Assembly (NCBI GenBank): GCA_041743715.1
Contig: JBGTMH010000045.1
Coordinates: 18,092 to 82,091, forward strand
Length of the DNA stretch: 64,000 nucleotides
Source: Patescibacteria group bacterium
GTDB lineage: Bacteria > Patescibacteriota > Microgenomatia > Levybacterales > UBA12049
Direction: 5' to 3'
Each line of letters begins with the position of its first letter. The stretch's first letter is position 1. Of this stretch, positions 8,025 to 38,024 are shown piece after piece. Position numbers and translations under genes: made by a program. The notes beneath the pieces are model-generated. The model had not been told where the DNA came from. It ran no database searches and saw only the letters and a program-made list of their open reading frames with translations.

Positions 8025-10166
8025 TTAATATTTGAAGATTTGGAAAAGGTTGCTGTAGTCATCTGTCCAGAGTTTTATGTCTGTTCTACTTGGCTTGTCC
8101 TTTTTTGCTTTGTTAAGTGCTGAGGTCGTAAGTAATGATTTATCAGCCGCGAGAAACGCCCATTTGGAACGTGACTGCATATCATTTGCAGGAGGCACAT
8201 CGATAAAAATAACATGCATCTTGTGATATTGCGCAGCTTTTTGGATGACAGGAATGAGATCAAGATAGGTATTTGAAATATGGACCGCGATAATACTCTC
8301 CTTTGCAAGATGTGCTTTATAGAGTGCAAATGCTTCTTTGGTCAGCAGATGTACGGGGATTGCGTCATCGTTAAATGCATCCACGATAAAGAGATGATAG
8401 TTCTGCTTGTTATTTTCTTTGAGTTCTTTTTCCATTGAAAGCCTTCCATCACCGACAACATTTGTCACTTTTGCAGGTGTGTTGGCAAGATAGGTAAAAT
8501 GTGTCTTTGCCAGTTCTACATCTAACGGATTTAATTCATAAAATTTGATAGTATCTCCCTCTTGTCCATATGCTGCGATTGTCCCAACACCCAGTCCGAT
8601 AACACCAATCTGTAGTGGAGTCGTTTTTTCGCGAACACTATCGACAGCAAGTCCGATACTCTTTTCTCCAAAATATGTTGTCGGTTTCATCTTTTGTGAC
8701 TCAGCCAAGGGTTGGCAACCATGGATAATTTTGCCATTGAGTAGGCATCGGGTATCGGTTTTTTCTTGCTGCATTATTCGGAGTGTACCGTAGGAATTTC
8801 TCCAAACGCCAACTGAATTATTTGTTTGTTCAAGAAATAAGGCTATGGAAATGATTCCAAAAAAGAAACTGACAACAGCGATAAGAAAGACGGTCATTTC
8901 TTTTTGGGACCGGAGACCAAAATCAAGTCGGCGGTACAGAAATGAATTTTTATACTTGATAAGCACAAGGACTGCAATAAGCGTTGTTAAAAATAACCCA
9001 AGCAAGAATTCCCAAAAGAGTCCAATAAAAAAAATCGGCGCGATAATCGCGACAATTAATGCTCCTACCACACTGCCGAAAGCCATTACTAAGTAAAAGG
9101 CATTTATGTCTTTTGTTGGGGGTCTCGTGGCAAAAAGTTCACCGTGACACACCATAAAACAGCTGAAAAGCATAATGGTATACAAAACAAGCTCGACAAA
9201 AATGCTCAGTGCAGGCGGCTGGGTCAGAAGGGCTAGGACTACAGGAATAGTCAGAAGAAAACAATACGCGTAGAGATTCCGTTTGTAAAAAGATCGCTCA
9301 CTAAAGCATAGGATAAAAGAAAGAAGATATAATCCGAGCGGCAGAAGCCAAAGAAACGGAATCGGGGCGATACCCTGTGTCAATTGATGTGTTCCAGCAA
9401 GAAGCATGAGTGATGAGACTGCGGGAAGAAAGAGCCAGAGTCTATACTGTGTCATCCCGACCGAGTCCGCAGACGAGTGGAGGGATCTTTTCAACTGTGC
9501 CGCTTGTGGTGAGAAGATTCCTCGACTCCTTTCAGTCGCTCGGAATGACAAATAAGTACAAAATACAAGTAATAAACATAAAATAATAAAAATAAGTGAC
9601 CAAATCTGTCCTTGGTTTTGTAATGAAAGAAAGGGTTCGATAAAAAAAGGATAACTAATAATTGCCAACAGGGAGCCCGCATTGGAAAGAGCATAGAGTG
9701 GATAAGGAGATTTTTTATGAGGAAGTACACTGAACCATTTTTGTAAAAGCGTGCTGGTTGTGGAGAGAAGAAAATATGGTAGCCCGACACTTATCAGTAA
9801 GATAGCAAGTACCTGGATTACCGGTGCGTATGTCTCAGGAAGTTTTAGTTCAACTCCTGGTGTAATAGGTGAGTTCCAATGTGAAAATAAAAGCACCGTA
9901 ATAATGACAATTGTCACAACTAATGTACTATGAAGCAAGAGCTGCTGTCTTAATGAGAATTTTGTGAGCAGATACGCGTACAAGTAACCCGCCAAAAGCA
10001 GGGTTTGAAAAAATAACAGTGAGGTTATCCAAACAAACGATGTTCCACCAAACCATGGAAGAATATATTTTCCGATGAGCGGTTGGACTTGGAAGAGCAG
10101 AAAAGCGCTGAGGAAGATGGTTACTGAAAAACTGATGAAGTAGAGAAGCGAATGGTTGTATTTCAT
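8025..10166 (-). CDS. Polytopic membrane domain fused to a spermidine-synthase-like (class I methyltransferase fold) domain
   Basis: 713 aa. About 450 aa of TM helices, then VIGLGVGTIAAYGQEGDTIKFYELNP...LFIVDAFNDDAIPVHLLTKEAF, a spermidine synthase family signature. Confidence 0.75.
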   Translation of the reverse strand: MKYNHSLLYFISFSVTIFLSAFLLFQVQPLIGKYILPWFGGTSFVWITSLLFFQTLLLAGYLYAYLLTKFSLRQQLLLHSTLVVTIVIITVLLFSHWNSPITPGVELKLPETYAPVIQVLAILLISVGLPYFLLSTTSTLLQKWFSVLPHKKSPYPLYALSNAGSLLAIISYPFFIEPFLSLQNQGQIWSLIFIILCLLLVFCTYLSFRATERSRGIFSPQAAQLKRSLHSSADSVGMTQYRLWLFLPAVSSLMLLAGTHQLTQGIAPIPFLWLLPLGLYLLSFILCFSERSFYKRNLYAYCFLLTIPVVLALLTQPPALSIFVELVLYTIMLFSCFMVCHGELFATRPPTKDINAFYLVMAFGSVVGALIVAIIAPIFFIGLFWEFLLGLFLTTLIAVLVLIKYKNSFLYRRLDFGLRSQKEMTVFLIAVVSFFFGIISIALFLEQTNNSVGVWRNSYGTLRIMQQEKTDTRCLLNGKIIHGCQPLAESQKMKPTTYFGEKSIGLAVDSVREKTTPLQIGVIGLGVGTIAAYGQEGDTIKFYELNPLDVELAKTHFTYLANTPAKVTNVVGDGRLSMEKELKENNKQNYHLFIVDAFNDDAIPVHLLTKEAFALYKAHLAKESIIAVHISNTYLDLIPVIQKAAQYHKMHVIFIDVPPANDMQSRSKWAFLAADKSLLTTSALNKAKKDKPSRTDIKLWTDDYSNLFQIFKY
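9451..9549. repeat. 99-bp nested palindromic element (GTCATCCCGACCGAG...GTCGCTCGGAATGAC) inside the coding sequence
   Basis: Outer arms 9451-9465 / 9535-9549 pair at 12 of 15 positions. Inner arms 9475-9492 / 9511-9528 pair at 15 of 18. 99 bp is 33 codons, read through as LSFRATERSRGIFSPQAAQLKRSLHSSADSVGMT between TM helices. Confidence 0.7.
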
Positions 10167-10175
10167 GTGGGTGCA

Positions 10176-10204
10176 TTGATTATAGCAGAGAAATTATCTA
10201 CAAT
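10176..10204 (+). promoter_or_regulatory. Promoter TTGATT-17-TACAAT for murB
   Basis: TTGATT 10176-10181, 17-nt spacer, TACAAT 10199-10204. The murB ATG lies 8 nt after the -10 box and there is no SD. Confidence 0.5.
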
Positions 10205-10212
10205 TAACTGCT

Positions 10213-11178
10213 ATGTTGATTCAACAAGACTTTTCGCTTTCAGAACGACTTTGGTATAAAATCGGCGGCAGGGCAAAATATTTTTTGACTGTTGAGAACA
10301 GGGACGACATCACAGAAGCGCTTGCCTTTGTCAAAAAACGTAAACCGAATCGTTTATTTATCTGTGGACTCGGATCTAACCTCATTTTTTCGGATGAGTA
10401 CTTTGATGGGGTTGTAATTCAAATTGTTTCAACAAAAAATCATTCTGTGCACGCTATAGAAGGGGGGAAAATTACTGTTTTTGCCGGGACTGTTCTTGAC
10501 GATGTCATTACGTTTTCTTTTAGTCATAACCTGACTGGACTTGAGTGGGCTGGTGGTTTGCCTGGTACAGTGGGTGCTGGGGTTCGTGGAAACGTGGGTG
10601 CTTATGGCGGAGAGATAAAAGATTCGCTCGTTACTGCTGAAGTGTTGGATTATTCGGGTGGCAACCTAGTTGTAAAAACGTTAACAAACGAGCAATTACA
10701 ATTTGTTTACAGGGGGAGTTTGATAAAGTCCCACAAAAAAATGGTGGTTATATCTGCAACGTTTGGACTCAAAAAAAGTTCGGAGGAGAAAATAGAAGAA
10801 GCACAAAAAGTTTACATGCACAACAAACAGTTACGAAAAGACAAACATCCTCTAGAGTATCCCAACTGTGGATCGGTATTTAAGAATTTAAGAAAGAAAG
10901 ATGAGATTGAAAAAGTTCTCTCAATCTATCCGGAGTTCAGAGAAAATGTTGAGAAGAAATGGTTTGGCAAAATTGCAGTGGCAAGTTTGATAGAACGGTT
11001 AGGATTAAAAGGATACCGGATAGGGGATGCACAAGTGTCAACTAAGCATGCACTTTTTATCGTCAATCTCGGTCACGCAAAAGCAAAAGATGTGTTGCAG
11101 ATCATTCAAGACATTCAGGAAAAATTTGAGAACGTCTTCGGATTTCAGTTGGAAGTTGAAGTTGAAATTGTAAAATAG
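10213..11178 (+). CDS. murB: UDP-N-acetylenolpyruvoylglucosamine reductase
   Basis: YKIGGRAKYF, GLGSNLIF, GLPGTVGAGVRGNVGAYG and NCGSVFKN are all MurB/FAD-binding PCMH signatures. Confidence 0.9.
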   Translation: MLIQQDFSLSERLWYKIGGRAKYFLTVENRDDITEALAFVKKRKPNRLFICGLGSNLIFSDEYFDGVVIQIVSTKNHSVHAIEGGKITVFAGTVLDDVITFSFSHNLTGLEWAGGLPGTVGAGVRGNVGAYGGEIKDSLVTAEVLDYSGGNLVVKTLTNEQLQFVYRGSLIKSHKKMVVISATFGLKKSSEEKIEEAQKVYMHNKQLRKDKHPLEYPNCGSVFKNLRKKDEIEKVLSIYPEFRENVEKKWFGKIAVASLIERLGLKGYRIGDAQVSTKHALFIVNLGHAKAKDVLQIIQDIQEKFENVFGFQLEVEVEIVK

Positions 11179-11190
11179 TTCTGTTACAAT
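11162..11190 (+). promoter_or_regulatory. Promoter TTGAAA-17-TACAAT overlapping the murB stop, driving the lysine-operon leader
   Basis: TTGAAA 11162-11167, 17-nt spacer, TACAAT 11185-11190. Confidence 0.5.
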
Positions 11191-11202
11191 GCATTTATAT
11201 CT

Positions 11203-11253
11203 ATGAAATCTGTTACCTTAATTTCAAAAAAGTCAAAGAAGCCTCTCGCCTGA
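11203..11253 (+). CDS. Candidate regulatory leader peptide MKSVTLISKKSKKPLA (5 Lys in 16 codons)
   Basis: ATG 11203 lies 12 nt after the -10 box. Lys codons sit at 11206-11208 and in a KKSKK cluster at 11227-11241. The stop TGA 11251-11253 overlaps the 5' arm of the antiterminator stem. Confidence 0.45.
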   Translation: MKSVTLISKKSKKPLA

Positions 11254-11288
11254 GGGACTCTCTTTGTGGAAAAGAAAGAGCGCCCCTC
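11252..11288 (+). promoter_or_regulatory. Antiterminator hairpin of the lysine-operon leader
   Basis: 11252-11265 (GAGGGACTCTCTTT) pairs with 11275-11288 (AAAGAGCGCCCCTC), giving 12 Watson-Crick pairs and 2 mismatches with a 9-nt loop. It consumes CCCCTC (11283-11288), which the terminator needs. Confidence 0.5.
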
Positions 11289-11304
11289 AAATGAGGGGTT
11301 TTTT
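11283..11304 (+). terminator. Intrinsic terminator CCCCTC-AAAT-GAGGGG-TTTTTT
   Basis: 6-bp GC-rich stem 11283-11288 / 11293-11298, a 4-nt loop, and a run of six T at 11299-11304. It lies 30 nt upstream of the lysA start, whose SD is AAAGGA. Confidence 0.65.
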
Positions 11305-11333
11305 AGTGGAAAAATTTAGAGAAAGGAAATATT

Positions 11334-12656
11334 ATGCAAAGAGTTGATAGAAGTGAGTCAAGAAATGGTGTTTCGCCAGATCGTGCAACATTAAAAAGTT
11401 TGACACTACCATTTCACAGAGAACGGCTTATTGCAATAACAACTGAATATCCAACACCAGTTTATCTCTACGATGAAGCAGGAATAAGAGCAAGCGCACG
11501 AAGATTAATCGATGCTTTTTCTTGGGTAAAAGATGGAAGAGGTGGGGGATTTAAGAATTTTTTTGCAGTGAAGGCTACCCCAAATCCTGCAATATTGGGA
11601 ATTCTGAGAGAGGAAGGTCTTGGTGCAGATTGTAGTTCACTTCCCGAGCTGATGCTTGCTGAGCGCTCAGGGATAGTCGGTGAAGATATCATGTTCACTT
11701 CAAATAATACTCCAGCGGAAGAATTTGTAGCAGCAAGAAGATTAGGTGGAATCATAAATCTTGATGATATTAGTCATATTTCATTTTTAGAAAGACATGC
11801 TGGGATACCACCAGTAATTAGTTTTCGTTATAATCCTGGTCCTCTGCGTGAAGGAAATGTAATTATCGGAAATCCAGAAGAAGCAAAATATGGTTTGACG
11901 AGAGAACAGATTTTTGATGCATATGAAATTATGAAGGGAAAAGGTGTACGAAGATTTGGTTTGCATACAATGGTTGCGTCTAATGAACTAGACCCCCAAT
12001 ATTTTGTAGAGACGGCAAAAATGCTTTTTGAATTAGTCGGGGACTTGAGTGAGCGTGGAATTAACATGGAGTTTGTCAATTTAGGCGGGGGTATTGGAAT
12101 TCCATACAAACCAGAACAAGAGCCAGTAGATGTTGAAGCAATTTCAGCTGGAGTGAAAGAGGCATATGATGAACTAATTGTGGCAAGAGACTTAGATCCA
12201 CTGGGAATCACGATGGAATGCGGAAGATATATTACCGGCCCTCATGGTTTTCTTGTCGCTAAAGCGATACATAAGAAAGATATTTATAGGAAATATGTCG
12301 GGGTTGATGCAAGTATGGCAAACCTTATGCGTCCAGGTATGTATGGTGCATATCATCATATCACTATTCCTGGAAAAGAACGTGCTCCACGAGATCGTAC
12401 TTATGATGTAACTGGAGGGCTGTGTGAGAATAACGATAAGTTTGGGGTTCAAAGAGATTTACCGGAAATACAGATTGGGGATTTTGTTGTCATTCATGAT
12501 GCAGGCGCGCATGGGCATTCAATGGGTTTTAACTATAACGGCAAACTGCGTTCCGCTGAGGTCTTACTTCGACCTGATGGGAGTACTCAGCTTATAAGAA
12601 GAGCTGAAACAATCGCTGATCATTTCACGACCTTAGTTTTTGATGGAGCACAGTAG
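11334..12656 (+). CDS. lysA: Diaminopimelate decarboxylase (PLP, Orn/DAP/Arg decarboxylase fold)
   Basis: PTPVYLYDE, FAVKATPNP (PLP-binding Lys), GGGIGIPY, GGLCENNDKF. The operon context with the dap genes supports lysA over other family members. Confidence 0.8.
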   Translation: MQRVDRSESRNGVSPDRATLKSLTLPFHRERLIAITTEYPTPVYLYDEAGIRASARRLIDAFSWVKDGRGGGFKNFFAVKATPNPAILGILREEGLGADCSSLPELMLAERSGIVGEDIMFTSNNTPAEEFVAARRLGGIINLDDISHISFLERHAGIPPVISFRYNPGPLREGNVIIGNPEEAKYGLTREQIFDAYEIMKGKGVRRFGLHTMVASNELDPQYFVETAKMLFELVGDLSERGINMEFVNLGGGIGIPYKPEQEPVDVEAISAGVKEAYDELIVARDLDPLGITMECGRYITGPHGFLVAKAIHKKDIYRKYVGVDASMANLMRPGMYGAYHHITIPGKERAPRDRTYDVTGGLCENNDKFGVQRDLPEIQIGDFVVIHDAGAHGHSMGFNYNGKLRSAEVLLRPDGSTQLIRRAETIADHFTTLVFDGAQ

Positions 12657-12678
12657 GTTATCTTTAGTGGCTAATACT

Positions 12679-13902
12679 ATGGCAAAAATTAATAAAAATT
12701 TTAAAAAATTACAAAAAAACTATCTATTTATAGATATTGCAAAGCGGACAAAAGCGTTTATAGAAGCAAATCCCGGTGTTACGGTTTTGCGTCTTGGTAT
12801 CGGTGATACAACCGAACCCATTCCGCCAGTTGTCATAGCCGGTATGCACGCAGGTGTTGAGAAATTATCAAAAAGAGAAACGTACACAGGGTATGACGAC
12901 AATCTCGGAAATCCGCGGCTTAAGCAGGCTTTTGTGGATTGGTATCAACAGCGCGGCGTTTCCCTTGATACATCGGAAATTTGTATTGGGGATGGAGGAA
13001 AACCTGATAGTGGAAATATTCAATCAATTTTTTCTCCCAAAAACATCATTGCCGTTTCTGATCCTGTTTATCCGGTATATGTTGACAGTAATGTTATAGC
13101 TGGAAGAACTGGAACCTATGCAAACGGAAAATATAAAGGAGTTGTCTATATGCCCCTCACAAGTAAAAATAATTTCATCCCCAAAGTACCTGATGTAAAA
13201 GTAGATTTGATTTATTTATGCAGTCCAAATAATCCGACCGGAGGAGTGATGAGTAAAAAAGATCTTGAGCGGTTTGTGAAATATGCCAGGAAAAACAAAT
13301 CAGTCATTATCTTCGACTCCGCCTACTCAATGTATATAAAAGATAGCGATTTGCCGAGAAGTATTTATGAAATTGAAGGAGCAAAATCTTGCGCGATAGA
13401 AATCAGCAGTTTTTCAAAATGGGCTGGATTCACAGGGGTGCGGCTGGGGTGGACGATTGTCCCAAAAGAATTGGTCTCAGAAGATTCGGAGAAAGGGGAA
13501 TTACATGCGATGTGGTTCCGTCGACAGACGACTATGTTTAATGGCGCATCAAATATTGCTCAAGAAGGCGGCATAGCTGTTTTGTCAAAACAAGGGCAGA
13601 AGCAGTGTCAGCAACTGGTTGATTATTATATGGGAAATGCACAGTTAATTAGAAATACATTTTTAAAATTAGGATTCACTGTCTATGGAGGAGAAAATGC
13701 GCCGTATATTTGGCTTAAAACACCGACTGGTTATAGCTCTTGGGAATTTTTTGATAAAGTACTCAGTGAGACTCATATCGTCGGAACACCTGGATCAGGA
13801 TTCGGCAGTTGTGGAGAGGGATATTTCAGACTCTCAGCATTTGGAAAGAGGGAGAATATTGAGAAAGCGGTTAAAAGTATACAGAAGAATTTAAAACTAT
13901 GA
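12679..13902 (+). CDS. dapL: LL-diaminopimelate aminotransferase
   Basis: N-terminus MAKINKNFKKLQKNYLFIDIAKR is DapL-typical. Also SFSKWAGFTGVRLGW (PLP-binding Lys) and CSPNNPTG. Start taken at ATG 12679 rather than the ORF-track start 12640. Confidence 0.85.
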   Translation: MAKINKNFKKLQKNYLFIDIAKRTKAFIEANPGVTVLRLGIGDTTEPIPPVVIAGMHAGVEKLSKRETYTGYDDNLGNPRLKQAFVDWYQQRGVSLDTSEICIGDGGKPDSGNIQSIFSPKNIIAVSDPVYPVYVDSNVIAGRTGTYANGKYKGVVYMPLTSKNNFIPKVPDVKVDLIYLCSPNNPTGGVMSKKDLERFVKYARKNKSVIIFDSAYSMYIKDSDLPRSIYEIEGAKSCAIEISSFSKWAGFTGVRLGWTIVPKELVSEDSEKGELHAMWFRRQTTMFNGASNIAQEGGIAVLSKQGQKQCQQLVDYYMGNAQLIRNTFLKLGFTVYGGENAPYIWLKTPTGYSSWEFFDKVLSETHIVGTPGSGFGSCGEGYFRLSAFGKRENIEKAVKSIQKNLKL

Positions 13903-15242
13903 TTATCGCTAAATTTGGTGGGACATCGGTGAGTACAAAAGAGCGGTTTGAGACAATTTGTCAGATAGTTCTGAAAGAAAAAGAGAGACAGCCAGTTGTT
14001 GTTGTGTCCGCGATTCGTGGTATTACAGATCTATTGTTAGCATCTGTTGATGCTTCGTCTCAAGAAAGGAAATCAATTTTTAATCAGATCGAGAAGATGC
14101 ATATGGATCTTGTCCGGGCTTTTTGGAAAAAGCAGGATGTGACAGATATCGAAATATATCTGAAAAAATGTTTGCAGCAATTGGAGCATTTGTTAACAAA
14201 AAAAGAAAGAAGCAAGGCACTTTCTGATGAAATTGTCTCTTTTGGTGAGATGCTTTCTTCTTATGTAATTAGTAAAGCCCTTGAGACAAAAGGTTTTCGT
14301 TCGCAGCAGGTCGTTGCGACTGAGTTGATTGTTACTAATGTTGAATTCGGTGCTGCTGAATTTTTGCCAAAAGAAACTGTGCAAAAATCGAAAAAAGTTA
14401 TCATGCCATTGATCGAGAAAGGGATTATTCCGGTTGTTACCGGGTTTATCGGTAGTACCAAAGATGGACGAATTACAACGCTAGGAAGAGGTGGTTCAGA
14501 TTATAGTGCTGCTGTTTTGGGGTTTGCATTGCAGGCTGAGGAAATTCAAATTTGGACTGATGTTGATGGTATATTTACGACTGATCCACGGTATTTTAAA
14601 GATGCTTTTGTTTTGTCACATGTGTCGTATAAGGAAGCATCAGAGCTTGCTTCCTTTGGAGGAAAAGTTCTTCATCCACGGACAATTCGTCCGGCGATAC
14701 ATGCTGGGATTCCGGTTCGTGTACTGAATACACTTAATCCGGCTTTTCAAGGAACGCTGATTACAGAAAAGCCACTACAGACTTCTCATATTGCAGCAAT
14801 TGCTTCAAAACGAAAAATAACGCTTGTGAATTTATACTCGACAGAGATGTTATTTAGCAAAGGATTTTTAGCTCGTGTCTTTACTGTTTTTGCAAAACAT
14901 AATATTTCAGTGGACCTTGTCAGTGTCTCTGAGGTAAGCGTTTCTGTAACACTTGATAACGATGAGAACTTAAAAGATGCTACTTGCGAATTAGAGAAAT
15001 TTACTGCGGTGACAACGGATGATAAATATGGTATGGTTTCACTTATCGGTGACGGAATAGTCAGCGTTAAAAATATTATGAGAAATATTTTTTCGATTCT
15101 TGAACAGTTCCATATAGAAGTCAAAATGATATCACTTGGAGCAACAGACATTAATATTAGCTTAGTTATTCCAACAGTACAGGTTGACGAAGCAGTTTCA
15201 GTTTTGCATAGAACAATGGTTGTCAGGAAAGGATACATATGA
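13899..15242 (+). CDS. lysC: Aspartate kinase
   Basis: IIAKFGGTSV, GRGGSDYSAA, IWTDVDGIFTTDPR, plus C-terminal ACT-like repeats. ATGA overlap with dapL. Confidence 0.9.
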   Translation: MIIAKFGGTSVSTKERFETICQIVLKEKERQPVVVVSAIRGITDLLLASVDASSQERKSIFNQIEKMHMDLVRAFWKKQDVTDIEIYLKKCLQQLEHLLTKKERSKALSDEIVSFGEMLSSYVISKALETKGFRSQQVVATELIVTNVEFGAAEFLPKETVQKSKKVIMPLIEKGIIPVVTGFIGSTKDGRITTLGRGGSDYSAAVLGFALQAEEIQIWTDVDGIFTTDPRYFKDAFVLSHVSYKEASELASFGGKVLHPRTIRPAIHAGIPVRVLNTLNPAFQGTLITEKPLQTSHIAAIASKRKITLVNLYSTEMLFSKGFLARVFTVFAKHNISVDLVSVSEVSVSVTLDNDENLKDATCELEKFTAVTTDDKYGMVSLIGDGIVSVKNIMRNIFSILEQFHIEVKMISLGATDINISLVIPTVQVDEAVSVLHRTMVVRKGYI

Positions 15243-15982
15243 AAATCGCACTGATTGGTTATGGAAAAGTTGGAAAAGAAATAGAGCGGATTGTTGCAGA
15301 AAGCAAAGAGCACTCGATTGTTTCAGTCAGTAATACAAAAAGCAAAGGATTGGATAAAGCGGGATTACGAAAAGCGGATGTGGCAATTGATTTTACAACT
15401 CCTGACGTTGTTCTCCAAAATATTAGTGAAGTCTTGTCAATGAAAATACCAATGGTTATTGGAACAACTGGATGGTACGATCAACTGCCAACAGTCGAAA
15501 AACTTGTCAAAGAAACGAAAACAGGATGTATCTACGGACCGAATTTTTCGATTGGTGTGAATATCTTTTTTAATATCGTTGAGCATGCAGCGAGTCTCGT
15601 TAAGCGATTTGATGGATATGATGTTTTTGGGATAGAGACGCATCATACAAGTAAAAAAGATAGCCCGAGCGGTACTGCACGGAAACTGTCAGATATTATA
15701 CTAGAGAATTATCCTCGTAAAAAAACACTGCAAACAGAAACGCTTAATCGACCGATTCGATCAGACGAATTACATCTAGTTTCAGTTCGGGGGGGGCGGA
15801 GTTTTGGTAAACATGAAATTACGTTTGACAGCCAATCAGATGAAATACAATTGGTTCATCAGTCTTGGGGAAGAAGAGGATTTGCCGAAGGGGCGCTGAT
15901 CGCTGCGAAGTTTATCGAAAATAAAAAAGGACTTTATAATTTTAGTGATATTTTTGCAAAGGAATGGGGTGAAAACATATGA
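15239..15982 (+). CDS. dapB: 4-hydroxy-tetrahydrodipicolinate reductase
   Basis: MKIALIGYGKVGKEI, GIETHHTSKKDSPSGTA (DapB E-x-HH-x-K-D-APSGTA motif). ATGA overlap with lysC. Confidence 0.9.
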   Translation: MKIALIGYGKVGKEIERIVAESKEHSIVSVSNTKSKGLDKAGLRKADVAIDFTTPDVVLQNISEVLSMKIPMVIGTTGWYDQLPTVEKLVKETKTGCIYGPNFSIGVNIFFNIVEHAASLVKRFDGYDVFGIETHHTSKKDSPSGTARKLSDIILENYPRKKTLQTETLNRPIRSDELHLVSVRGGRSFGKHEITFDSQSDEIQLVHQSWGRRGFAEGALIAAKFIENKKGLYNFSDIFAKEWGENI

Positions 15983-16863
15983 AAAAAATTACTGGAGCAT
16001 TAACAGCGGTTGTTACACCATTTGAAACAGATGGAAATGTTGATGTGAAAGCCTTAAAAAAACTTGTACAGTTTCAAATAAAAAACGGCATTGCAGGTAT
16101 TGTCCCTTGTGGATCGACAGGTGAAGCGGCAACACTGACTCTTGAGGAGTATCGATTGGTTGTCGAAACTGTTGTCAAAGAAGTAGCAGGTCAAGTATAC
16201 GTTATCGCAGGTGCGACACATAATGATACAAGTCGTGCAATCGAACTTTCTATAATCGCCAAAAAAGCCGGCGCTGATGGTCTTTTGCATGCAACGCCTT
16301 ATTACAATAAACCAACCCTCACAGGACTGATTGCTCACTATAAAGCAATTGCAGCAAACGCAAATTTGCCTATTATTCTTTACAATGTCCCCGGAAGAAC
16401 AGGACTTAATTTGACTTCCGATATGACATTAACACTTGCAAAAGAAATATCGCATGTTGTGGGAATAAAAGAAGCATCAGCAAATATTGTGCAAATAATG
16501 GATGTTATCAAACGTGCACCAACCGACTTTTCTATTCTTTCAGGTGACGACGCGTTTACGTTTTCCATTATGGCACTTGGAGGACACGGTATTATTTCTG
16601 TTGCTGCAAACGAGATTCCAAAAGAAATTGCAGCCCTAACAACGGCAGCTTTAGAAGGCGATTGGAAAAAAGCGAGAAAAATCCATTATGAATGGCTTGA
16701 TTTAATGCATATTAATTTCATTGAATCAAACCCACAGCCTGTAAAAACTGCGCTCTTTTTGATGGGGAAAATAAAGGAAGTTTTTCGTTTACCACTTGTT
16801 CCTATGCAAGATAAAAGCAAAGAAACGCTGAAAAAAGTTTTGAAAGGACATAATCTCACATGA
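15979..16863 (+). CDS. dapA: 4-hydroxy-tetrahydrodipicolinate synthase
   Basis: GSTGEAATLT, YNKPT, YNVPGRTG, GIKEASAN (Schiff-base Lys). ATGA overlap on both sides. Confidence 0.9.
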   Translation: MKKITGALTAVVTPFETDGNVDVKALKKLVQFQIKNGIAGIVPCGSTGEAATLTLEEYRLVVETVVKEVAGQVYVIAGATHNDTSRAIELSIIAKKAGADGLLHATPYYNKPTLTGLIAHYKAIAANANLPIILYNVPGRTGLNLTSDMTLTLAKEISHVVGIKEASANIVQIMDVIKRAPTDFSILSGDDAFTFSIMALGGHGIISVAANEIPKEIAALTTAALEGDWKKARKIHYEWLDLMHINFIESNPQPVKTALFLMGKIKEVFRLPLVPMQDKSKETLKKVLKGHNLT

Positions 16864-17936
16864 AAAAAATACCAGTCGGCATTTTAGGAGCAACTGGTAT
16901 GGTGGGGCAGAGGTTTGTACAACTTCTGTCCGATCATCCGTGGTTTGCTGTAAAAGTAGTAGCAGCATCACCCAGATCAGCAGGCATACCGTATAAAGAT
17001 GCGGTTTCAAATAAATGGATTTCAGAACTCCCTATCCCAAAGGAAGTCGCTGAGATGAAAATACTGGCTGTGGAAGATGATATTGATTCCATATGTCAAA
17101 GCGTCCGTCTTGTATTTTCTGCACTTGATTTGGATAAAGAAAAAATTAAGAAGATTGAAGAAGATTATGCTGCTCGTGGGGTATTTGTTGTCACGAATAA
17201 TTCAGCTCATCGGTGGACTGAGGACGTGCCGTTGATACTGCCGGAAATAAACCCGCATCTTTTAAAAATTATAGCAAGTCAGCGAAAGAAGCGGGGATGG
17301 AAGGATGGGGGAATAATTGCGAAATCAAATTGTTCTATACAATCGTACGTATCCGTTCTTGAAGCATTTAAAACATTTGAACCGATAGAAATTATTGTTA
17401 CGAAAATACAAGCGATTTCAGGAGCAGGAAAAACGTTTGCGACTTGGCCCGAAATGGTTGACAATGTTATTCCTTATATCGCTGGTGAAGAAGAAAAAAG
17501 TGAAAGAGAACCACTGAAAGTTTGGGGGACTATTAAAAATGGGAAAATTCAATCTGCAAAACTACCATTTATTTCAGCAACTTGTCTTCGAATCGCTGTA
17601 TCAGATGGCCATATGGCATCAGTAAGTGTAAAATTTAGAAAAAAGCCAACACAGAAAGATTTGATTGCAGCCATCAAACACTATAAAAATCCAATAGCAA
17701 AATTCAACTTACCATCGGCTCCCAAAGAGTTCTTAAAATATTTTGAAGAAGAGGATAGACCCCAGACAAAGTTAGATCGTGAATCTGGGAATGGGATGAC
17801 TGTAAGTGTGGGCAGGATACGCGAAGATCATGTTTTAGATTATAAATTTGTAGCGCTTTCTCATAACACAATCCGAGGAGCAGCTGGAGGCGCTGTCTTG
17901 GCAGCAGAACTTCTCAAAGTAGAGGGCTATTTATAA
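16860..17936 (+). CDS. asd: Aspartate-semialdehyde dehydrogenase
   Basis: GILGATGMVGQRF, KSNCSIQ (active-site Cys), SHNTIRGAAGGAV. Confidence 0.9.
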   Translation: MKKIPVGILGATGMVGQRFVQLLSDHPWFAVKVVAASPRSAGIPYKDAVSNKWISELPIPKEVAEMKILAVEDDIDSICQSVRLVFSALDLDKEKIKKIEEDYAARGVFVVTNNSAHRWTEDVPLILPEINPHLLKIIASQRKKRGWKDGGIIAKSNCSIQSYVSVLEAFKTFEPIEIIVTKIQAISGAGKTFATWPEMVDNVIPYIAGEEEKSEREPLKVWGTIKNGKIQSAKLPFISATCLRIAVSDGHMASVSVKFRKKPTQKDLIAAIKHYKNPIAKFNLPSAPKEFLKYFEEEDRPQTKLDRESGNGMTVSVGRIREDHVLDYKFVALSHNTIRGAAGGAVLAAELLKVEGYL

Positions 17937-17976: not shown

Positions 17977-20214
17977 ATGTTTTGGGCGGATGAACTACTA
18001 AAAAAGAGAAAAGGAAAAGAGTGGGTGAATGATGCATGGACACCGTCAGGCATTGTTCATATGGGTGGTTTAAAGGGACCTGTAATTCATGATGTTCTTT
18101 ATAAAATCCTCAAGGAGCAGCAAAAAGATGTGACGTATACTTTTGGTTTTGATGATTTTGATCCGATAGACGGATTACCTCCAAGTCTTCAAGAATCTCA
18201 CAAAGCATATATGGGTATCCCAACATTTTTGGCGCCGTCGCCTGACGGTAATGGAACATTTGCAGATTTTTATGGCAATAAAATGCGAGCCATGTTTAAG
18301 GCAGTCGGAATCGAGACGACTATCTATCTGGCATCAGTTAATTATAAAAAAGGTGTCTACAACGATGGCATTAAAATAATGCTTGATGGTGTCAAAAAGG
18401 TCCGTCAGGTTTATGAAGAGATGTATAAAAAATCTGTGAAGAATGATTGGTACCCACTACAAGTAATATGTCCGAAGTGCGGAAAACTGGGAACAACCAA
18501 AGTAACTGATTGGGATGGAAAGGTCGTGACTTTTACTTGTATGTCTGATCTTGTCACGTGGGCTAAGGGGTGTGAATATACCGGAAAGATTTCTCCATTT
18601 GACGGGAATGCAAAGATGCCTTGGAAACCTGAGTGGTCGGTTAAATGGTATACATTCAAAGTAACAATTGAAGGTGCTGGAAAAGATCATATGTCTGCAG
18701 GGGGGTCGTTTGAAATTGCTGCAAATATCCTCAAAGCTGTCTTTAATCAAGAACCACCTATGGAATTACCATATGAATTTTTTCTTTGGAACGGAAAAAA
18801 AATGTCTTCCTCAAAAGGGCTCGGGTTAACAGCGGAAGAGCTGTTAGAAGTTTTGCCCCCGCAGTTGGTTAGGTTTTTAATGATCAAAACTGAACCAAAT
18901 CGAGCAGTAGAATTTAATCCTAAAGGCACAGATATCATCCCAAAACTATTTGATGAATACCAAAAAGCAGCAGATGCATATTTCAAGAACGGAGATAAAG
19001 ATTTAGCGAGAGTATTTGAATTGTCACAAATTGAAAAAATAAAAAAGCCACCAGTTGTCCGCTTTTCTGTTCTCGCCCAGTGGGTGCAGATGCCAAATAT
19101 GCAGCAGAAAATTACAGAGGAAGGGCTTGAAGAATGGGCAAAGTATGCGAGAGCTTGGTTAGAAAACTATGCCCCGGATTCAGAGAAGTTTTTCGTTCAG
19201 AAAGACTTACCAGAAGCTGCCAAGGATCTAACGAATCAACAAAAAGTGCTTTTACAAAAGATAGCAGCGGAGCTAAACAAGGACTGGGATGCAGAAGCAT
19301 TCCAAACGAGACTATATGATATTGGAAAAGAAGTAGGTCTCAATGGCAAAGAAACATTTACTGCGATTTACAAGGTTTTGATTGGGAAAGATCACGGACC
19401 CAAAGCTGCATGGTTAATTTTGTCGTTGGACAAAGAGTTTGTTAAAGAACGATTTGAAGAGGCTGCAAAAGAGAATCAAGAATCAGGAAGCAAGAATCAA
19501 GATGTATTTTTAGTTACTCGTTTGAATAAACCGGAAATTTTTTCTCTGAACTCGAAGGTTAAAGAGAAATATCCTTCAATATCAATCGGTATTGCAGTTA
19601 TTAAAGGAGTTACTGTCGAAAAAACACATCCATCGCTCGAGGAGGAAAAAGAAAAATTGCTTACATCATTGGAAGGTTTCACCACTGAGCAACTCGGTCA
19701 GAATCCTGAAATTATTAGTTATCGAAAGCTCTACAAAGAGATGGGAGTTGATTGGCATTCTCGCAGACCAAGCCCCGAAGCGCTACTTCGACGGGTTGCA
19801 CTCCACAAAGGATTGTACACCATTAATACATGCGTTGATGCATACAATCTTGTTGTTATGAAACGCAGAGTTTCAGTCGGTGCATTTGATTTCGATACAA
19901 TCGAATTTCCCACTGAACTTCGTTTTGCAAAATCAGGCGCAGAAATTTTACTTCTCGGCGATACAACACCTACGAAATACAAACCAACAGAGCTCGCGTA
20001 TTCTGACCAAAAAGGCGGATATAATATCGACTTTAATTTCCGCGACACGAAACGTACTGCTGTAAATCTTGAAACAAAAAATGTCTATATCAATGTCGAT
20101 GGTGTGTACGACATTACATCTGAAGAAGTAGAAAAAGTTTTGCGAGAAGCATGTGATGCAATATTAAAATATTGTGGCGGAAGTCTTGAAACATTTGGAG
20201 TAGAAGAAGTATAG
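17977..20214 (+). CDS. lysK: Class I lysine--tRNA ligase with a C-terminal B3/4-like (PheRS-beta editing-domain-like) extension
   Basis: The first ~505 aa are class I LysRS (PSGIVHMGGLKG, zinc knuckle CPKCGK, KMSSSKG). The region from aa ~509 to 745 (YRKLYKEMGVDWHSRRPSPEALLRRVALHKGLYTINTCVDAYNLVVMKRRVSVGAFDFD) matches stand-alone B3/4 domain proteins. Confidence 0.85.
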   Translation: MFWADELLKKRKGKEWVNDAWTPSGIVHMGGLKGPVIHDVLYKILKEQQKDVTYTFGFDDFDPIDGLPPSLQESHKAYMGIPTFLAPSPDGNGTFADFYGNKMRAMFKAVGIETTIYLASVNYKKGVYNDGIKIMLDGVKKVRQVYEEMYKKSVKNDWYPLQVICPKCGKLGTTKVTDWDGKVVTFTCMSDLVTWAKGCEYTGKISPFDGNAKMPWKPEWSVKWYTFKVTIEGAGKDHMSAGGSFEIAANILKAVFNQEPPMELPYEFFLWNGKKMSSSKGLGLTAEELLEVLPPQLVRFLMIKTEPNRAVEFNPKGTDIIPKLFDEYQKAADAYFKNGDKDLARVFELSQIEKIKKPPVVRFSVLAQWVQMPNMQQKITEEGLEEWAKYARAWLENYAPDSEKFFVQKDLPEAAKDLTNQQKVLLQKIAAELNKDWDAEAFQTRLYDIGKEVGLNGKETFTAIYKVLIGKDHGPKAAWLILSLDKEFVKERFEEAAKENQESGSKNQDVFLVTRLNKPEIFSLNSKVKEKYPSISIGIAVIKGVTVEKTHPSLEEEKEKLLTSLEGFTTEQLGQNPEIISYRKLYKEMGVDWHSRRPSPEALLRRVALHKGLYTINTCVDAYNLVVMKRRVSVGAFDFDTIEFPTELRFAKSGAEILLLGDTTPTKYKPTELAYSDQKGGYNIDFNFRDTKRTAVNLETKNVYINVDGVYDITSEEVEKVLREACDAILKYCGGSLETFGVEEV

Positions 20215-34161: not shown

Positions 34162-36081
34162 ATGGGAAAAATAATAGGTATTGATTTAGGGACAACAAAT
34201 TCATGTGTGGCTGTGATGGAGGGGGGCTCACCGAAGGTGATTCATTCTGCAGAAGGGCGTAACACAATTCCTTCAGTGGTTGATCCAAAAACACATGTGG
34301 TGGGTGATGTTGCAAAAAGACAACTGGTTTTGAAGTCAAAGCAAACGATTTTTTCAATCAAACGGTTGATGGGGAAGAAATTCAGTGATCCAACGGTCCA
34401 GGAAGATATCAAGTGGCTTCCCTACACTATCAAATCCGGCCGTGATGACATGGCAGTTGTGGAAGTGGATGGTAAGACCTATACACCGCAAGAAATTAGC
34501 GCAATGATTTTACAGAAGATCAAAGCGGATGCTGAATCGTACTTGGGTGATAAAATCACACAAGCAGTGATTACCGTTCCTGCATATTTTGACGACAGTG
34601 AACGGCAAGCGACCAAACAAGCTGGAGAAATCGCAGGCCTTGAAGTCCTCAGAATCATTAACGAGCCAACTGCGGCAGCGCTCGCATATGGACTCGACAA
34701 GAAAAATGCCCACACTATAGCGGTCTACGATCTGGGTGGAGGAACATTTGATATTTCAATTCTTGAGCTTGGTGAAGGTGTGTATGAAGTGAAATCCACC
34801 AATGGTGACACCCATCTGGGTGGAGATGATTTTGATAAAAAGATTATTGATTATATTGCCTCAGAGTTTCAGAAAGAAAACAATGTTGATCTGATGCGCG
34901 ATCCACAGGCGCTTCAGCGGCTCAAGGAATCGGCTGAAAAAGCAAAGATTGAACTCTCCACGTCACAAGAAGCACAAATTAATCAGCCATTTATTACTCA
35001 AGGCAAAGACGGCCCGTTGCATCTGACAATGACCCTGACCCGTGCCAAGCTTGAGCAGATTGTTGATGATTTGGTACAAAAAACACTTGGCCCGGTTGAA
35101 AAAGCACTCAAAGACGCAGGCAAGAAAGTTGCAGACATTGATGAAGTCATAATGGTGGGTGGTATGACCCGCATGCCAAAAATTGTTGATGCTGTCACCA
35201 AATTCTTCGGCAAAGAAGCTAACCGTTCAGTCAACCCAGATGAAGTCGTCGCCATAGGAGCAGCTGTACAGGCTGGCGTATTAGGTGGAGAAGTAAAAGA
35301 TGTGTTGCTTTTGGATGTCACACCATTGACCCTGGGTATTGAGACATTGGGGAGTGTTTCAACACCGCTTATCAATAGAAATACGACTATTCCAACTTCC
35401 AAATCGCAGGTGTTCTCAACGGCAGCTGACAATCAAACCCAAGTTGAAATTAATGTCCTCCAAGGCGAGCGGCCCATGGCAGTGGATAACAAAACACTTG
35501 GAAGATTTATCCTCGATGGCATCCCTCCAGCACCACGGGGTGTCCCACAAGTTGAAGTGACTTTTGATATTGATACCAACGGTATTCTCAACGTTACCGC
35601 AAAAGACAAAGCATCCGGCAAAGAACAAAGTATCAAAATCACAGGCAGTACAGGTCTCTCAAAAGAAGAAGTTGAAAAGATGACCAAAGAAGCAGAACTC
35701 CACGCGAAAGAAGATGAAGAGAAGAAAGGCAAGATTGAAGCCAGAAATCATGCAGACGCGCTTATCTTCACAGCTGAAAAATCACTCAAAGACGGTGGAG
35801 ACAAAGTCGATCCCGCAGTCAAAACAGAAGTTGAAGAAAAGATGAAAGCCCTGAAAGACATTTTAGACAGCGGCAGCAAAGAAGAACTAGAAACAAAAAC
35901 AAAAGAACTCTCAGAGTCACTACAAAAAATAGGAGAAGCAGCCTATCAACAAGGCCAACAAGCGCAAGAACAACCAGAGATTGAAAAAGAAGAAAAAGAA
36001 GGCACCCCAGCAGATGAGGCTTCTGATAATAAAGACAAAAAGAGTAAAGAGAAGCCGGTTGAAGGTGAAGTTGTGGAGTAA
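34162..36081 (+). CDS. dnaK: Molecular chaperone DnaK (Hsp70)
   Basis: [29 protein letters not shown]. 639 aa. SD AGGAGA upstream. Confidence 0.95.
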
Positions 36082-36104
36082 CGATTTGTTACAAACGTCG
36101 CTGT

Positions 36105-36131
36105 AAACACCCCAGAGTTAAGGGGTTTTTT
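36105..36131 (+). terminator. Weak intrinsic terminator after dnaK
   Basis: CCCC 36110-36113 / GGGG 36122-36125 with an 8-nt loop, flanking A/T pairs, and a run of six T at 36126-36131. Confidence 0.45.
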
Positions 36132-36145
36132 ATTGGTCACAAAGA

Positions 36146-37142: not shown

Positions 37143-38024
37143 ATGGCGGACAATAAAGATTACTATGACATTTTAGGGGTTTCGAAATCTGCAACGGCGG
37201 AGGAGATAAAGAAGGCTTATCGGAAGTTGGCTTTGCAGTATCATCCTGACCGGAATAAGTCCAAAGATGGAGAGGGGAAATTTAAAGAAGTTACAAAGGC
37301 ATATGAAGTCTTGTCCAATGTGGAAAAACGGAAGTCGTACGACCAGTTCGGACATGCGGCTTTTGAGCAGGGAGCAGGTCAAGGTGGTCCGGGTGGGCAG
37401 CAGGGGGGAGGACAGTATGGGCCGTTTACGTATACTTATTCCAATAATAATCAGGGTTTTGACATGGGTGGATTTTCCGATCCATTTGAAATTTTTGAGC
37501 AATTCTTTGGCGGTGGATCGCCGTTTGGTCAACAAGCAAGACGGCCCGTTTATTCACTTTCATTGACTTTTTCCGAAGCTGTTCACGGGACAGAGAAAGC
37601 AGTAACCATAAATGGCAAAAAACAACAAATCAAAGTACCCGCCGGTGTTGACAGGGGTTCGCGTATACGATTTGATGACTATGATGTCATTCTTGATGTG
37701 ACACCAGACAGTAGATTTGGACGAGAAGGGTACGATATTATTACCGAAGAAGAAGTGTCATACGCGCATGCCGCATTAGGAACAGAACTTTCGGTTGAAA
37801 CCATCGATGGTGCAATAAAATTTAGGGTACCCGCCGGAACACAACCCGGGACTCTCATCCGCTTAACCGGTCGAGGCGTCCCTCGTCTGAGAGGTGGGGG
37901 TAAGGGAGATCATTATGTAAAAATAAAAATAGTCATTCCTAAGAAACTGAGCCACAAACAAAAAGAGCTCCTCGAAGAGTTGGAGAGAGAAGAACATAAA
38001 GGAAAAGGCTGGTTTAGTTCTTAA
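37143..38024 (+). CDS. dnaJ: J-domain co-chaperone (DnaJ/CbpA type, lacks the Cys-rich zinc-finger domain)
   Basis: DYYDILGV...YHPDRNK J-domain, G/F-rich linker and C-terminal substrate-binding domains. No CxxCxGxG repeats are present. Confidence 0.85.

Follow-up and report, generated by a model that had tools for sequence, protein, structure and literature searches.

Control of lysine biosynthesis is a textbook matter of a riboswitch (the L-box) or of proteins (LysR, ArgP). The L-box is a five-helix aptamer of about 180 nt that binds lysine directly, and the T-box, which exceeds 200 nt, binds uncharged tRNA directly via a specifier codon and the T-box sequence; the class-I lysK gene of Bacillus cereus is said to carry a T-box leader that senses tRNA-Lys charging by transcription attenuation. 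Documented cases of leader-peptide attenuation concern Trp, His, Leu, Thr, Ile/Val and Phe and, to our knowledge, not Lys. A full-text literature search found no described leader-peptide attenuator for lysine, as an earlier note on the DNA studied here had supposed; the nearest case is a speculative Thr/Lys-rich small open reading frame (ORF) that precedes an aspartate dehydrogenase gene of Sinorhizobium (PMC10117765), and a comparative study of Actinobacteria assigns lysine control to the L-box (PMC1262725). Here we describe a candidate in a 64,000-nt stretch from a Patescibacteria group bacterium (Microgenomatia; Levybacterales; GenBank assembly GCA_041743715.1, contig JBGTMH010000045.1, positions 18,092 to 82,091 of the forward strand), hereafter the window. 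The 172-bp region between murB and lysA is probably the promoter and 5′ leader of a lysA-dapL-lysC-dapB-dapA-asd-lysS unit, acting as a ribosome-mediated transcription attenuator that reads charged tRNA-Lys.

The earlier note had placed all parts of a classical attenuator in this region: a promoter, TTGAAA-17-TACAAT, at 11162-11190; a 16-codon ORF with five Lys codons and a KKSKK cluster at 11227-11241; a 12-pair stem (11252-11265 with 11275-11288) overlapping the leader stop codon; and a terminator, CCCCTC-AAAT-GAGGGG-T6, that reuses CCCCTC. Every one of these features was found where the note had put it. What it overlooked were a hairpin between regions 1 and 2 (1:2), a pairing between regions 1 and 4 (1:4) and, further downstream, the class-I lysS gene. 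The features of the leader are as follows.

10213 to 11178, plus strand: murB, which precedes the leader
11162 to 11190, plus strand: sigma-70-type promoter, with a -35 box TTGAAA (11162-11167), a 17-nt spacer and an extended -10 box TGtTACAAT (11182-11190)
11203 to 11253, plus strand: leader ORF MKSVTLISKKSKKPLA, 16 codons, ATG at 11203, TGA at 11251-11253
11227 to 11241, plus strand: putative regulatory Lys codon cluster AAA AAG TCA AAG AAG (K9 K10 S11 K12 K13), encoding KKSKK
11234 to 11247, plus strand: region 1 (CAAAGAAG-C-CUCUC; codons Ser-Lys-Lys-Pro-Leu), the 5′ strand of the 1:2 hairpin, alternatively pairing with region 4
11252 to 11266, plus strand: region 2 (GAGGG-A-CU-C-UCUUUG), a partner of region 1 or region 3
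11275 to 11288, plus strand: region 3 (AAAGAGCGCCCCUC), a partner of region 2 (antiterminator) or region 4
11282 to 11304, plus strand: intrinsic terminator 3:4, GCCCCUC-AAAU-GAGGGGU plus the rest of the U6, -12.9 kcal/mol
11320 to 11336, plus strand: Shine-Dalgarno-like AAAGGAAA and the lysA start ATG (11334), after the U-tract

The promoter is the top sigma-70 match within 9500-13000 (10 of 12 positions, with the TG of an extended -10 box present), and its -35 box overlaps the last murB codons. The leader ATG lies 12 nt 3′ of the -10 box, with no Shine-Dalgarno sequence. Such a near-leaderless start is normal here, since most window genes lack a Shine-Dalgarno sequence and several have a close -10 box: canonical boxes (TATAAT, TACAAT or TATACT) end 6-12 nt 5′ of the starts of, for example, murB (10213), a 713-aa gene (10166, minus strand), lysS (17977) and the genes at 37143 and 48027, which suggests that leaderless or very-short-leader mRNAs are widespread in this genome of the candidate phyla radiation (CPR). 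Five of the 16 leader codons are Lys, four of them within KKSKK, an enrichment above chance on which the proposal of the earlier note had depended: at least four Lys within five codons occur in 7 of the 691 ATG-started ORFs of 10-30 codons in the window (1.0%), 0.4% of Markov-simulated leaders hold such an ORF, and the binomial P for at least 5 Lys in 15 codons is 0.004 (genome Lys content, 7.7%). The genome uses AAA 743 times versus 245 for AAG, and it is the rarer AAG that dominates the leader cluster.

The predicted RNA folds are mutually exclusive in the manner of a classical attenuator. The 1:2 hairpin (11234-11247 with 11252-11266; -11.8 kcal/mol) holds the leader stop codon in its loop and gives the leader the complete 1:2, 2:3, 3:4 layout of the trp attenuator. 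The antiterminator, 11252-11288, is a 12-pair stem of -15.5 kcal/mol (z -3.2), or -17.9 kcal/mol with its flanking bases (11251-11289), and the terminator stem, 11282-11299, reaches -12.9 kcal/mol (z -3.5) before a T6 that runs to 11304. Because CCCCUC at 11283-11288 is common to both, antiterminator and terminator exclude each other. Regions 1 and 3 (CCUCUC/CCCCUC) and regions 2 and 4 (GAGGG/GAGGGG) are near-copies, so region 1, extended by the A-rich Lys codons, has region 4 plus the U-tract as a further possible partner, and the minimum-energy fold of the whole leader is 2:3 nested in 1:4 (-34.8 to -35.5 kcal/mol, z -5.5). Region 2 begins at 11252, within the stop codon (11251-11253), and K13 lies 12 nt before the stop; a terminating or stalled ribosome is assumed to cover about 12 nt 3′ of its A site. 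The distance from the U-tract to the lysA ATG is only about 29-30 nt. A separate lysA promoter after the terminator was considered and rejected, as the sole match (11307-11335) would initiate inside lysA; the 29-nt gap leaves no room for a promoter, and lysA must therefore be transcribed through the terminator.

From these elements we infer where transcription would start, that the leader would be translated and how a stalled ribosome would make the operon respond to lysine. Transcription would begin a few bases past the extended -10 box, and the near-leaderless 16-codon ORF would be translated while the RNA emerges. With Lys-tRNA plentiful, the ribosome would reach the UGA in the 1:2 loop and cover some 12 nt on its 3′ side (GAGGGACUCUC of region 2); region 2 being masked, region 3 would pair with region 4, and the CCCCUC/GAGGGG-U6 terminator would halt RNA polymerase 30 nt before lysA. 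With Lys-tRNA scarce, the ribosome would stall at K12/K13 (or K9/K10), covering region 1 and not region 2, upon which the 2:3 antiterminator would form, region 4 would stay unpaired and the operon together with lysS would be read through. Without a ribosome the RNA would adopt either 1:2 plus 3:4 or 2:3 nested in 1:4; a G+C stem would abut the U-tract either way, making off the default state, and only a ribosome on region 1 would free region 4 from pairing. The earlier note had argued from ribosome positions in much the same way, and the geometry, the mutually exclusive folds and the 12 family copies described below lend this logic support as a candidate mechanism.

Since the lys operon of the window has no close relative, relatives of the leader were sought via the neighbours of MurB. 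The resulting family comprises 12 distinct copies, counting that of the window, in Microgenomates-like (CPR) contigs. It is shallow (MurB 67-75% identical), and the best named MurB relatives come from Levybacteria, Roizmanbacteria, Microgenomates and Patescibacteria. The relatives keep the order murB ... lysS, inositol-phosphatase-like gene, rdgB, with differing genes between murB and lysS. The copies and what lies downstream of them are:

Window: leader MKSVTLISKKSKKPLA; lysA..asd-lysS
L101: leader MNSHIVTVKKSKKPLA; M20 hydrolase
L103: leader MNSYVANVKKSKKPLC; M20 hydrolase (contig ends)
L102: leader MNYRFAISKKTKKPLL; lysC-asd-lysS
L095: leader MNQINLIAKKTKKPLS; lysA-lysS
L107 (Levybacteria metagenome-assembled genome, MAG): leader MNFVNTFAKKAKKPLS; 469-aa protein, M20, lysS
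L084: dapF frame into ...DAKKTKKPLG with the same stop; DapE/ArgE-type deacylase-lysS
L099: leader MNFVKAIIKTTKKPLL; lysS
L104: leader MKFVTIIAKTTKKPLF; 383-aa protein-lysS
L083, first copy (L083a): leader MKYFLAASLLKKNLS; 398-aa protein and deacetylase
L081: leader MKNFTAIALTKKLLS; 403-aa protein and deacetylase-lysS
L083, second copy (L083b): leader MNISSIITTITIKPLM; lysS

Apart from L084, all copies stand alone, and these 11 carry a TGnTAnnnT extended -10 box at the same place, an ATG 9-13 nt past it and an ORF of 15-16 codons; the stop codon keeps its position, in the 1:2 loop, in all 12. Mutually exclusive 1:2, 2:3 and 3:4 helices are likewise predicted in 12 of 12 copies, with energies of -7.4 to -17.3 kcal/mol for 1:2, -13.4 to -17.9 kcal/mol for 2:3 and -8.7 to -16.1 kcal/mol for 3:4. 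Leader codons 2-8 are nearly unrelated among the copies, and in this variable half frame 0 contains a stop in none of 11 copies, the other frames in 5 and 7 of 11. As frame 0 remains free of stops across a freely varying first half and the length is always 15-16 codons, the leader ORF is, judging from these sequences, under selection for an open frame and for length. The short ORF with a Lys run that the earlier note expected in related leaders thus exists: KK[S/T/A]KK is found in 7 of the 12 copies and K-TT-KK in two. Behind the KKxKK copies lie lysA..asd (window), lysC-asd (L102), lysA (L095), a DapE/ArgE-type deacylase gene (L084) and M20 hydrolase genes (L101, L103, L107).

It is possible, if unlikely, that the fold is chosen independently of translation, by a protein (TRAP/PyrR/HutP-like) or another factor bound to the AAG-AAG-nCA-AAG-AAG repeats, and that the ORF is incidental. 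Such attenuation would make use of the same alternative helices, which are real and conserved, and of conserved purine triplet repeats that overlap region 1; it would be indifferent to an ATG without a Shine-Dalgarno sequence, and sequence-specific recognition is compatible with absent covariation. However, it needs neither the ATG, nor the length of 15-16 codons, nor the open frame, nor the stop in the 1:2 loop, all of which are kept in 11 copies, and no candidate regulator gene accompanies the element. The variation at the Lys codons is also informative: K9/K10, which lie outside the 1:2 helix, appear as AAA AAG, AAG AAG or AAA AAA (the latter in L107), and K13 is AAA in L104, substitutions that break the repeat but keep Lys. 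The Lys codons thus look conserved as codons. Moreover, in L084 dapF is fused in frame to the Lys codons and uses the same stop; its frame (L084 1234-2216) extends about 20 codons past the usual DapF C-terminus to end at the leader stop, and both the separate ATG and the clear -10 box are gone. Translation of dapF in L084 would bring ribosomes to the attenuator Lys codons.

A slightly more doubtful alternative is that the element is ordinary punctuation, a leaky intrinsic terminator of the upstream gene, with a promoter-like box and a Lys-rich ORF that have no regulatory role. The element does stand directly after murB in 7 of the 12 copies, with the -35 box overlapping the murB stop in the window, and the minimum-energy fold of the whole leader is one long hairpin ending in the U-tract. 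Yet five copies are not adjacent to murB and follow other genes: kbl in L081 and L095, a deacetylase gene in the second copy of L083, a 133-aa ORF in L107 and dapF in L084. These retain the -10 box, the ORF and the four regions, the murB of L081 has no such hairpin, and the element is thus not merely a murB terminator, in line with the earlier note, for which an exclusive role of this kind would have been damaging; all 11 stand-alone copies, besides, have their own TGnTAnnnT. A conserved promoter some 110 nt before a strong terminator is sensible only if termination is conditional, and punctuation would account neither for the conservation of the ORF nor for that of its stop position.

It appears quite improbable that the nascent peptide itself is the sensor, as in TnaC, with a C-terminal K-K-P-L-x-stop holding the ribosome near the stop in response to free lysine, so that region 2 is masked and termination favoured without codon hunger being the signal. 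No part of the peptide is better conserved than its KKPL, the off state would follow from a ribosome detained on the UGA, where it covers region 2, and feedback repression by lysine would be accommodated equally well; but CCU CUC (Pro-Leu) and AAG AAG coincide exactly with region 1, which is enough to explain the conservation, and two copies end in KKNLS or KKLLS, without Pro. Least probable of all is that the transcript of about 105 nt from promoter to terminator serves mainly as a small RNA or small-protein gene acting in trans: the unit is self-contained, having both a promoter and a terminator, and attenuator RNAs and leader peptides have a precedent for working in trans (reportedly the rnTrpL/peTrpL products of Sinorhizobium), but the first half of the peptide is not conserved, the element always lies 10-30 nt upstream of the start of a gene on the same strand, and such a function would be an addition to attenuation rather than an alternative to it.

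Attenuation by a translating ribosome is therefore the interpretation we prefer, and several observations weigh against it. The covarying stems that the earlier note had proposed to look for in related leaders did not emerge: covariation is not significant in the family alignment and double-sided changes do not exceed those in shuffles. Pairing amounts to 94% in the 1:2 plus 3:4 structure, which shows one double-sided change, and to 80% in the 2:3 structure, which shows three; as helices 1:2 and 3:4 are nearly invariant in a shallow family, covariation is uninformative, and the predicted helix structures rest on thermodynamics and conserved sequence. The distal 2:3 stem reaches a mean z of only -1.2 against shuffles of the 3′ half. 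Translation may be poor from a 5′ untranslated region of 2-6 nt (for the predicted start) that has no Shine-Dalgarno sequence. The abundance of Lys is in part explicable at the RNA level, since the AAG AAG of K12/K13 fall inside region 1 and the run of A-rich codons can pair with the U-tract. Three copies are poor in Lys: two have only KK and a Lys at codon 2, and the L083 copy beside lysS is rich in Ile and Thr (MNISSIITTITIKPLM), with a single Lys. In L084 and L107 the element comes after lysA, not before it. There is a single syntenic slot for all copies, so their links to lysine genes do not count as independent events. Finally, the downstream proteins of 398/403 aa, 383 aa and 469 aa share no homology among themselves and lack Pfam, NCBIfam or PDB relatives, the one lead being a weak ATP-grasp hint in the 469-aa protein.

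The second copy of L083 (8266-8367) is directly upstream of lysS, and its leader encodes five Ile, three Thr and one Lys; its 1:2 hairpin, at -7.4 kcal/mol, is the weakest of the family. By analogy it resembles a leader of the thr/ilv type built on the lysine scaffold, and it hints that specificity could be reprogrammed by codon swap, as with T-box specifiers. In the leader ORF of the window we also noticed an in-frame A_AAA_AAG, a dnaX-type -1 slippery heptamer (11226-11232), from which a -1 shift would pass regions 2 and 3 to end at a UGA (11291-11293) in the terminator loop. Programmed frameshifting was rejected, because the heptamer is not kept in the other family copies, and it probably arose as a side effect of the Lys codons.

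The searches with known RNA families were negative, as the earlier note had anticipated for the lysine riboswitch and the T-box. No Rfam family reaches its gathering threshold anywhere in the window, the Trp, His, Leu, Thr and Phe leader families included, and neither the L-box (RF00168) nor the T-box (RF00230) covariance model gives a match in 11000-11500 even at E<=10, where nothing appears beyond hairpin-like miRNA noise and a Phe_leader match of 15.6 bits (E 6.9; threshold 55 bits). The 155-nt intergenic space is mostly occupied by the ORF and the hairpins. Only about 35 nt separate the stop from the terminator, and between copies the distal 2:3 stem changes in its loop and 3′ strand, both in sequence and in length, which argues against a ligand-binding aptamer; together with the missing Rfam match, this indicates that the element is not a riboswitch. 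A covariance model of the leader family built in this analysis, R1, yields no copy from 846 kb surrounding LysA genes of other phyla, nor from 319 kb of viral contigs. The metagenome pattern CTCTTTGTN{8,30}CCCCTCN{4,6}GAGGGGTTTTT retrieved 11 stretches; L084/L088 alone belong to the family, and the others are unrelated terminators. A looser pattern run on viral sequences gave 41 stretches, none passing R1. The only other R1 match in the window is a weak one at 36081-36140 (E 0.25), a CCCC...GGGG-T6 after dnaK with the next ATG 9 nt on, and seems to be a plain terminator, not a family member. A dispersed repeat or miniature inverted-repeat transposable element was also considered and discarded: the element occurs once in 64 kb, and all copies are confined to the murB-lysS slot.

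Downstream of the leader, the six lysine genes (11334..17936) overlap or abut successively and are followed, 40 nt after asd, by lysS.

11334 to 12656, plus strand: lysA, the first gene under the proposed control
12640 to 13902, plus strand: dapL
13899 to 15242, plus strand: lysC
15239 to 15982, plus strand: dapB
15979 to 16863, plus strand: dapA
16860 to 17936, plus strand: asd
17977 to 20214, plus strand: class-I lysS, 745 aa

The operon lysA-dapL-lysC-dapB-dapA-asd is as the earlier note had read it, with lysS to be added at its end. No convincing plus-strand terminator was found between lysA and lysS, and lysA-dapL-lysC-dapB-dapA-asd-lysS is a candidate single transcription unit behind the leader; beyond lysS the window continues with a HisN-like phosphatase gene and rdgB. 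In the family at large, class-I lysS ends the unit in every copy with enough DNA, overlapping the gene before it or following at up to 43 nt. The 745-aa LysRS shows a weak pheT-like match at residues 597-706, and Pfam B3_4 is recorded in the 748-761-aa forms of relatives; the LysRS of other relatives measures 496-518 aa and is without this extension. Small ORFs of 66, 72 and 117 aa before lysS show no mutual similarity by eye and no family match, and may not be genes. The 64-kb window contains no tRNA genes. It codes for a 925-aa phosphoketolase that is extended at its C-terminus, and the 713-aa protein, whose gene is transcribed divergently from murB, has a weak match to fused major facilitator superfamily (MFS)/spermidine synthases.

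The slot between murB and class-I lysS holds the six-gene DapL-pathway lysine operon in the window and variable cargo among relatives, where it contains tdh-kbl, an unassigned gene with a histone-deacetylase-family gene, lysA alone, lysC-asd, M20 hydrolases or almost nothing. In one further relative (bearing P0142) murB is followed by genes for a 490-aa amino-acid kinase and, after a gap of 191 nt, a 444-aa lysC-like amino-acid kinase, and then by lysS; by its size the gap could accommodate a further leader copy. The nearest relative of the window LysA among 5.8 billion proteins searched is 71% identical, and the best matches are from Bacillota MAGs, which suggests that this CPR genome acquired the lysine operon horizontally. 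Among 80 LysA loci of other phyla, none has the operon order of the window and none a Lys-rich ORF plus terminator upstream of lysA. Given that lysS is the constant downstream gene, the ancestral role of the leader was probably control of the synthetase, as in pheM-pheST, and the lys operon is probably lineage-specific cargo between leader and lysS, with supply genes inserted in different lineages. It is appealing to propose, although we lean only slightly towards this wider view, that the leader represents a lineage-wide Microgenomates cassette, a near-leaderless Lys-codon attenuator that senses Lys-tRNA and governs class-I lysS together with the inserted lysine-supply genes.

If this is true, the element would be the first leader-peptide attenuator for lysine and among the first cis-regulatory RNA mechanisms defined in the CPR. 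A lysine version would show that the mechanism re-arose in a deep, uncultivated lineage that largely does without Shine-Dalgarno-led initiation. The leader would join control of class-I LysRS to that of lysine supply genes, and the murB-lysS slot would be a place where CPR bacteria, usually auxotrophs, gain and lose genes for lysine acquisition. R1 can be used to annotate the leader in other Microgenomates genomes, and at about 140 nt the element is of a size that suits heterologous or cell-free systems.

How, then, does the leader compare with the systems that control lysine genes elsewhere? Like the L-box, it stands upstream of lysC/lysA/dap genes and would operate through a choice between terminator and antiterminator, and indeed L-box-like motifs and terminators occur upstream of LysA in the Firmicutes loci L004, L005, L007, L012, L016, L027 and L062. 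Unlike the L-box, it has only about 50 nt of leader after the ORF, and its proposed signal is Lys-tRNA, read via the ribosome. It would also differ from the T-box of B. cereus lysK in that sensing would go through translation. With pheM-pheST of E. coli it has in common a leader rich in the cognate amino acid before an aminoacyl-tRNA synthetase gene and, as proposed here, the direct sensing of charged tRNA, and in Streptomyces trpS and leuS have been predicted to lie behind classical attenuators (PMC1262725). In contrast to these cases, the synthetase is a class-I LysRS, and biosynthetic or salvage genes lie between leader and synthetase, such that one leader would serve both supply and charging.

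The closest likeness is to trpL of E. coli and the his, leu, thr, ilv and pheA leaders. There too a promoter-proximal ORF (theirs runs to about 14-30 codons) has a cluster of codons for the amino acid of the pathway, and the RNA offers a 1:2 hairpin, a 2:3 antiterminator and a 3:4 intrinsic terminator. The regulatory codons likewise fall within region 1 or shortly before it, the stop separates region 1 from region 2 and lets a terminating ribosome mask region 2, and without translation the default state is off (here predicted). Unlike these, the leader described here concerns lysine, bears no sequence or Rfam relationship to them and belongs to a CPR/Microgenomates host; its ORF lacks a Shine-Dalgarno sequence and begins 9-13 nt after the -10 box, and the near-copies formed by regions 1/3 and 2/4 allow an extra 1:4 pairing. 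The resemblance to the Rfam leader families is one of mechanism, not of family membership.

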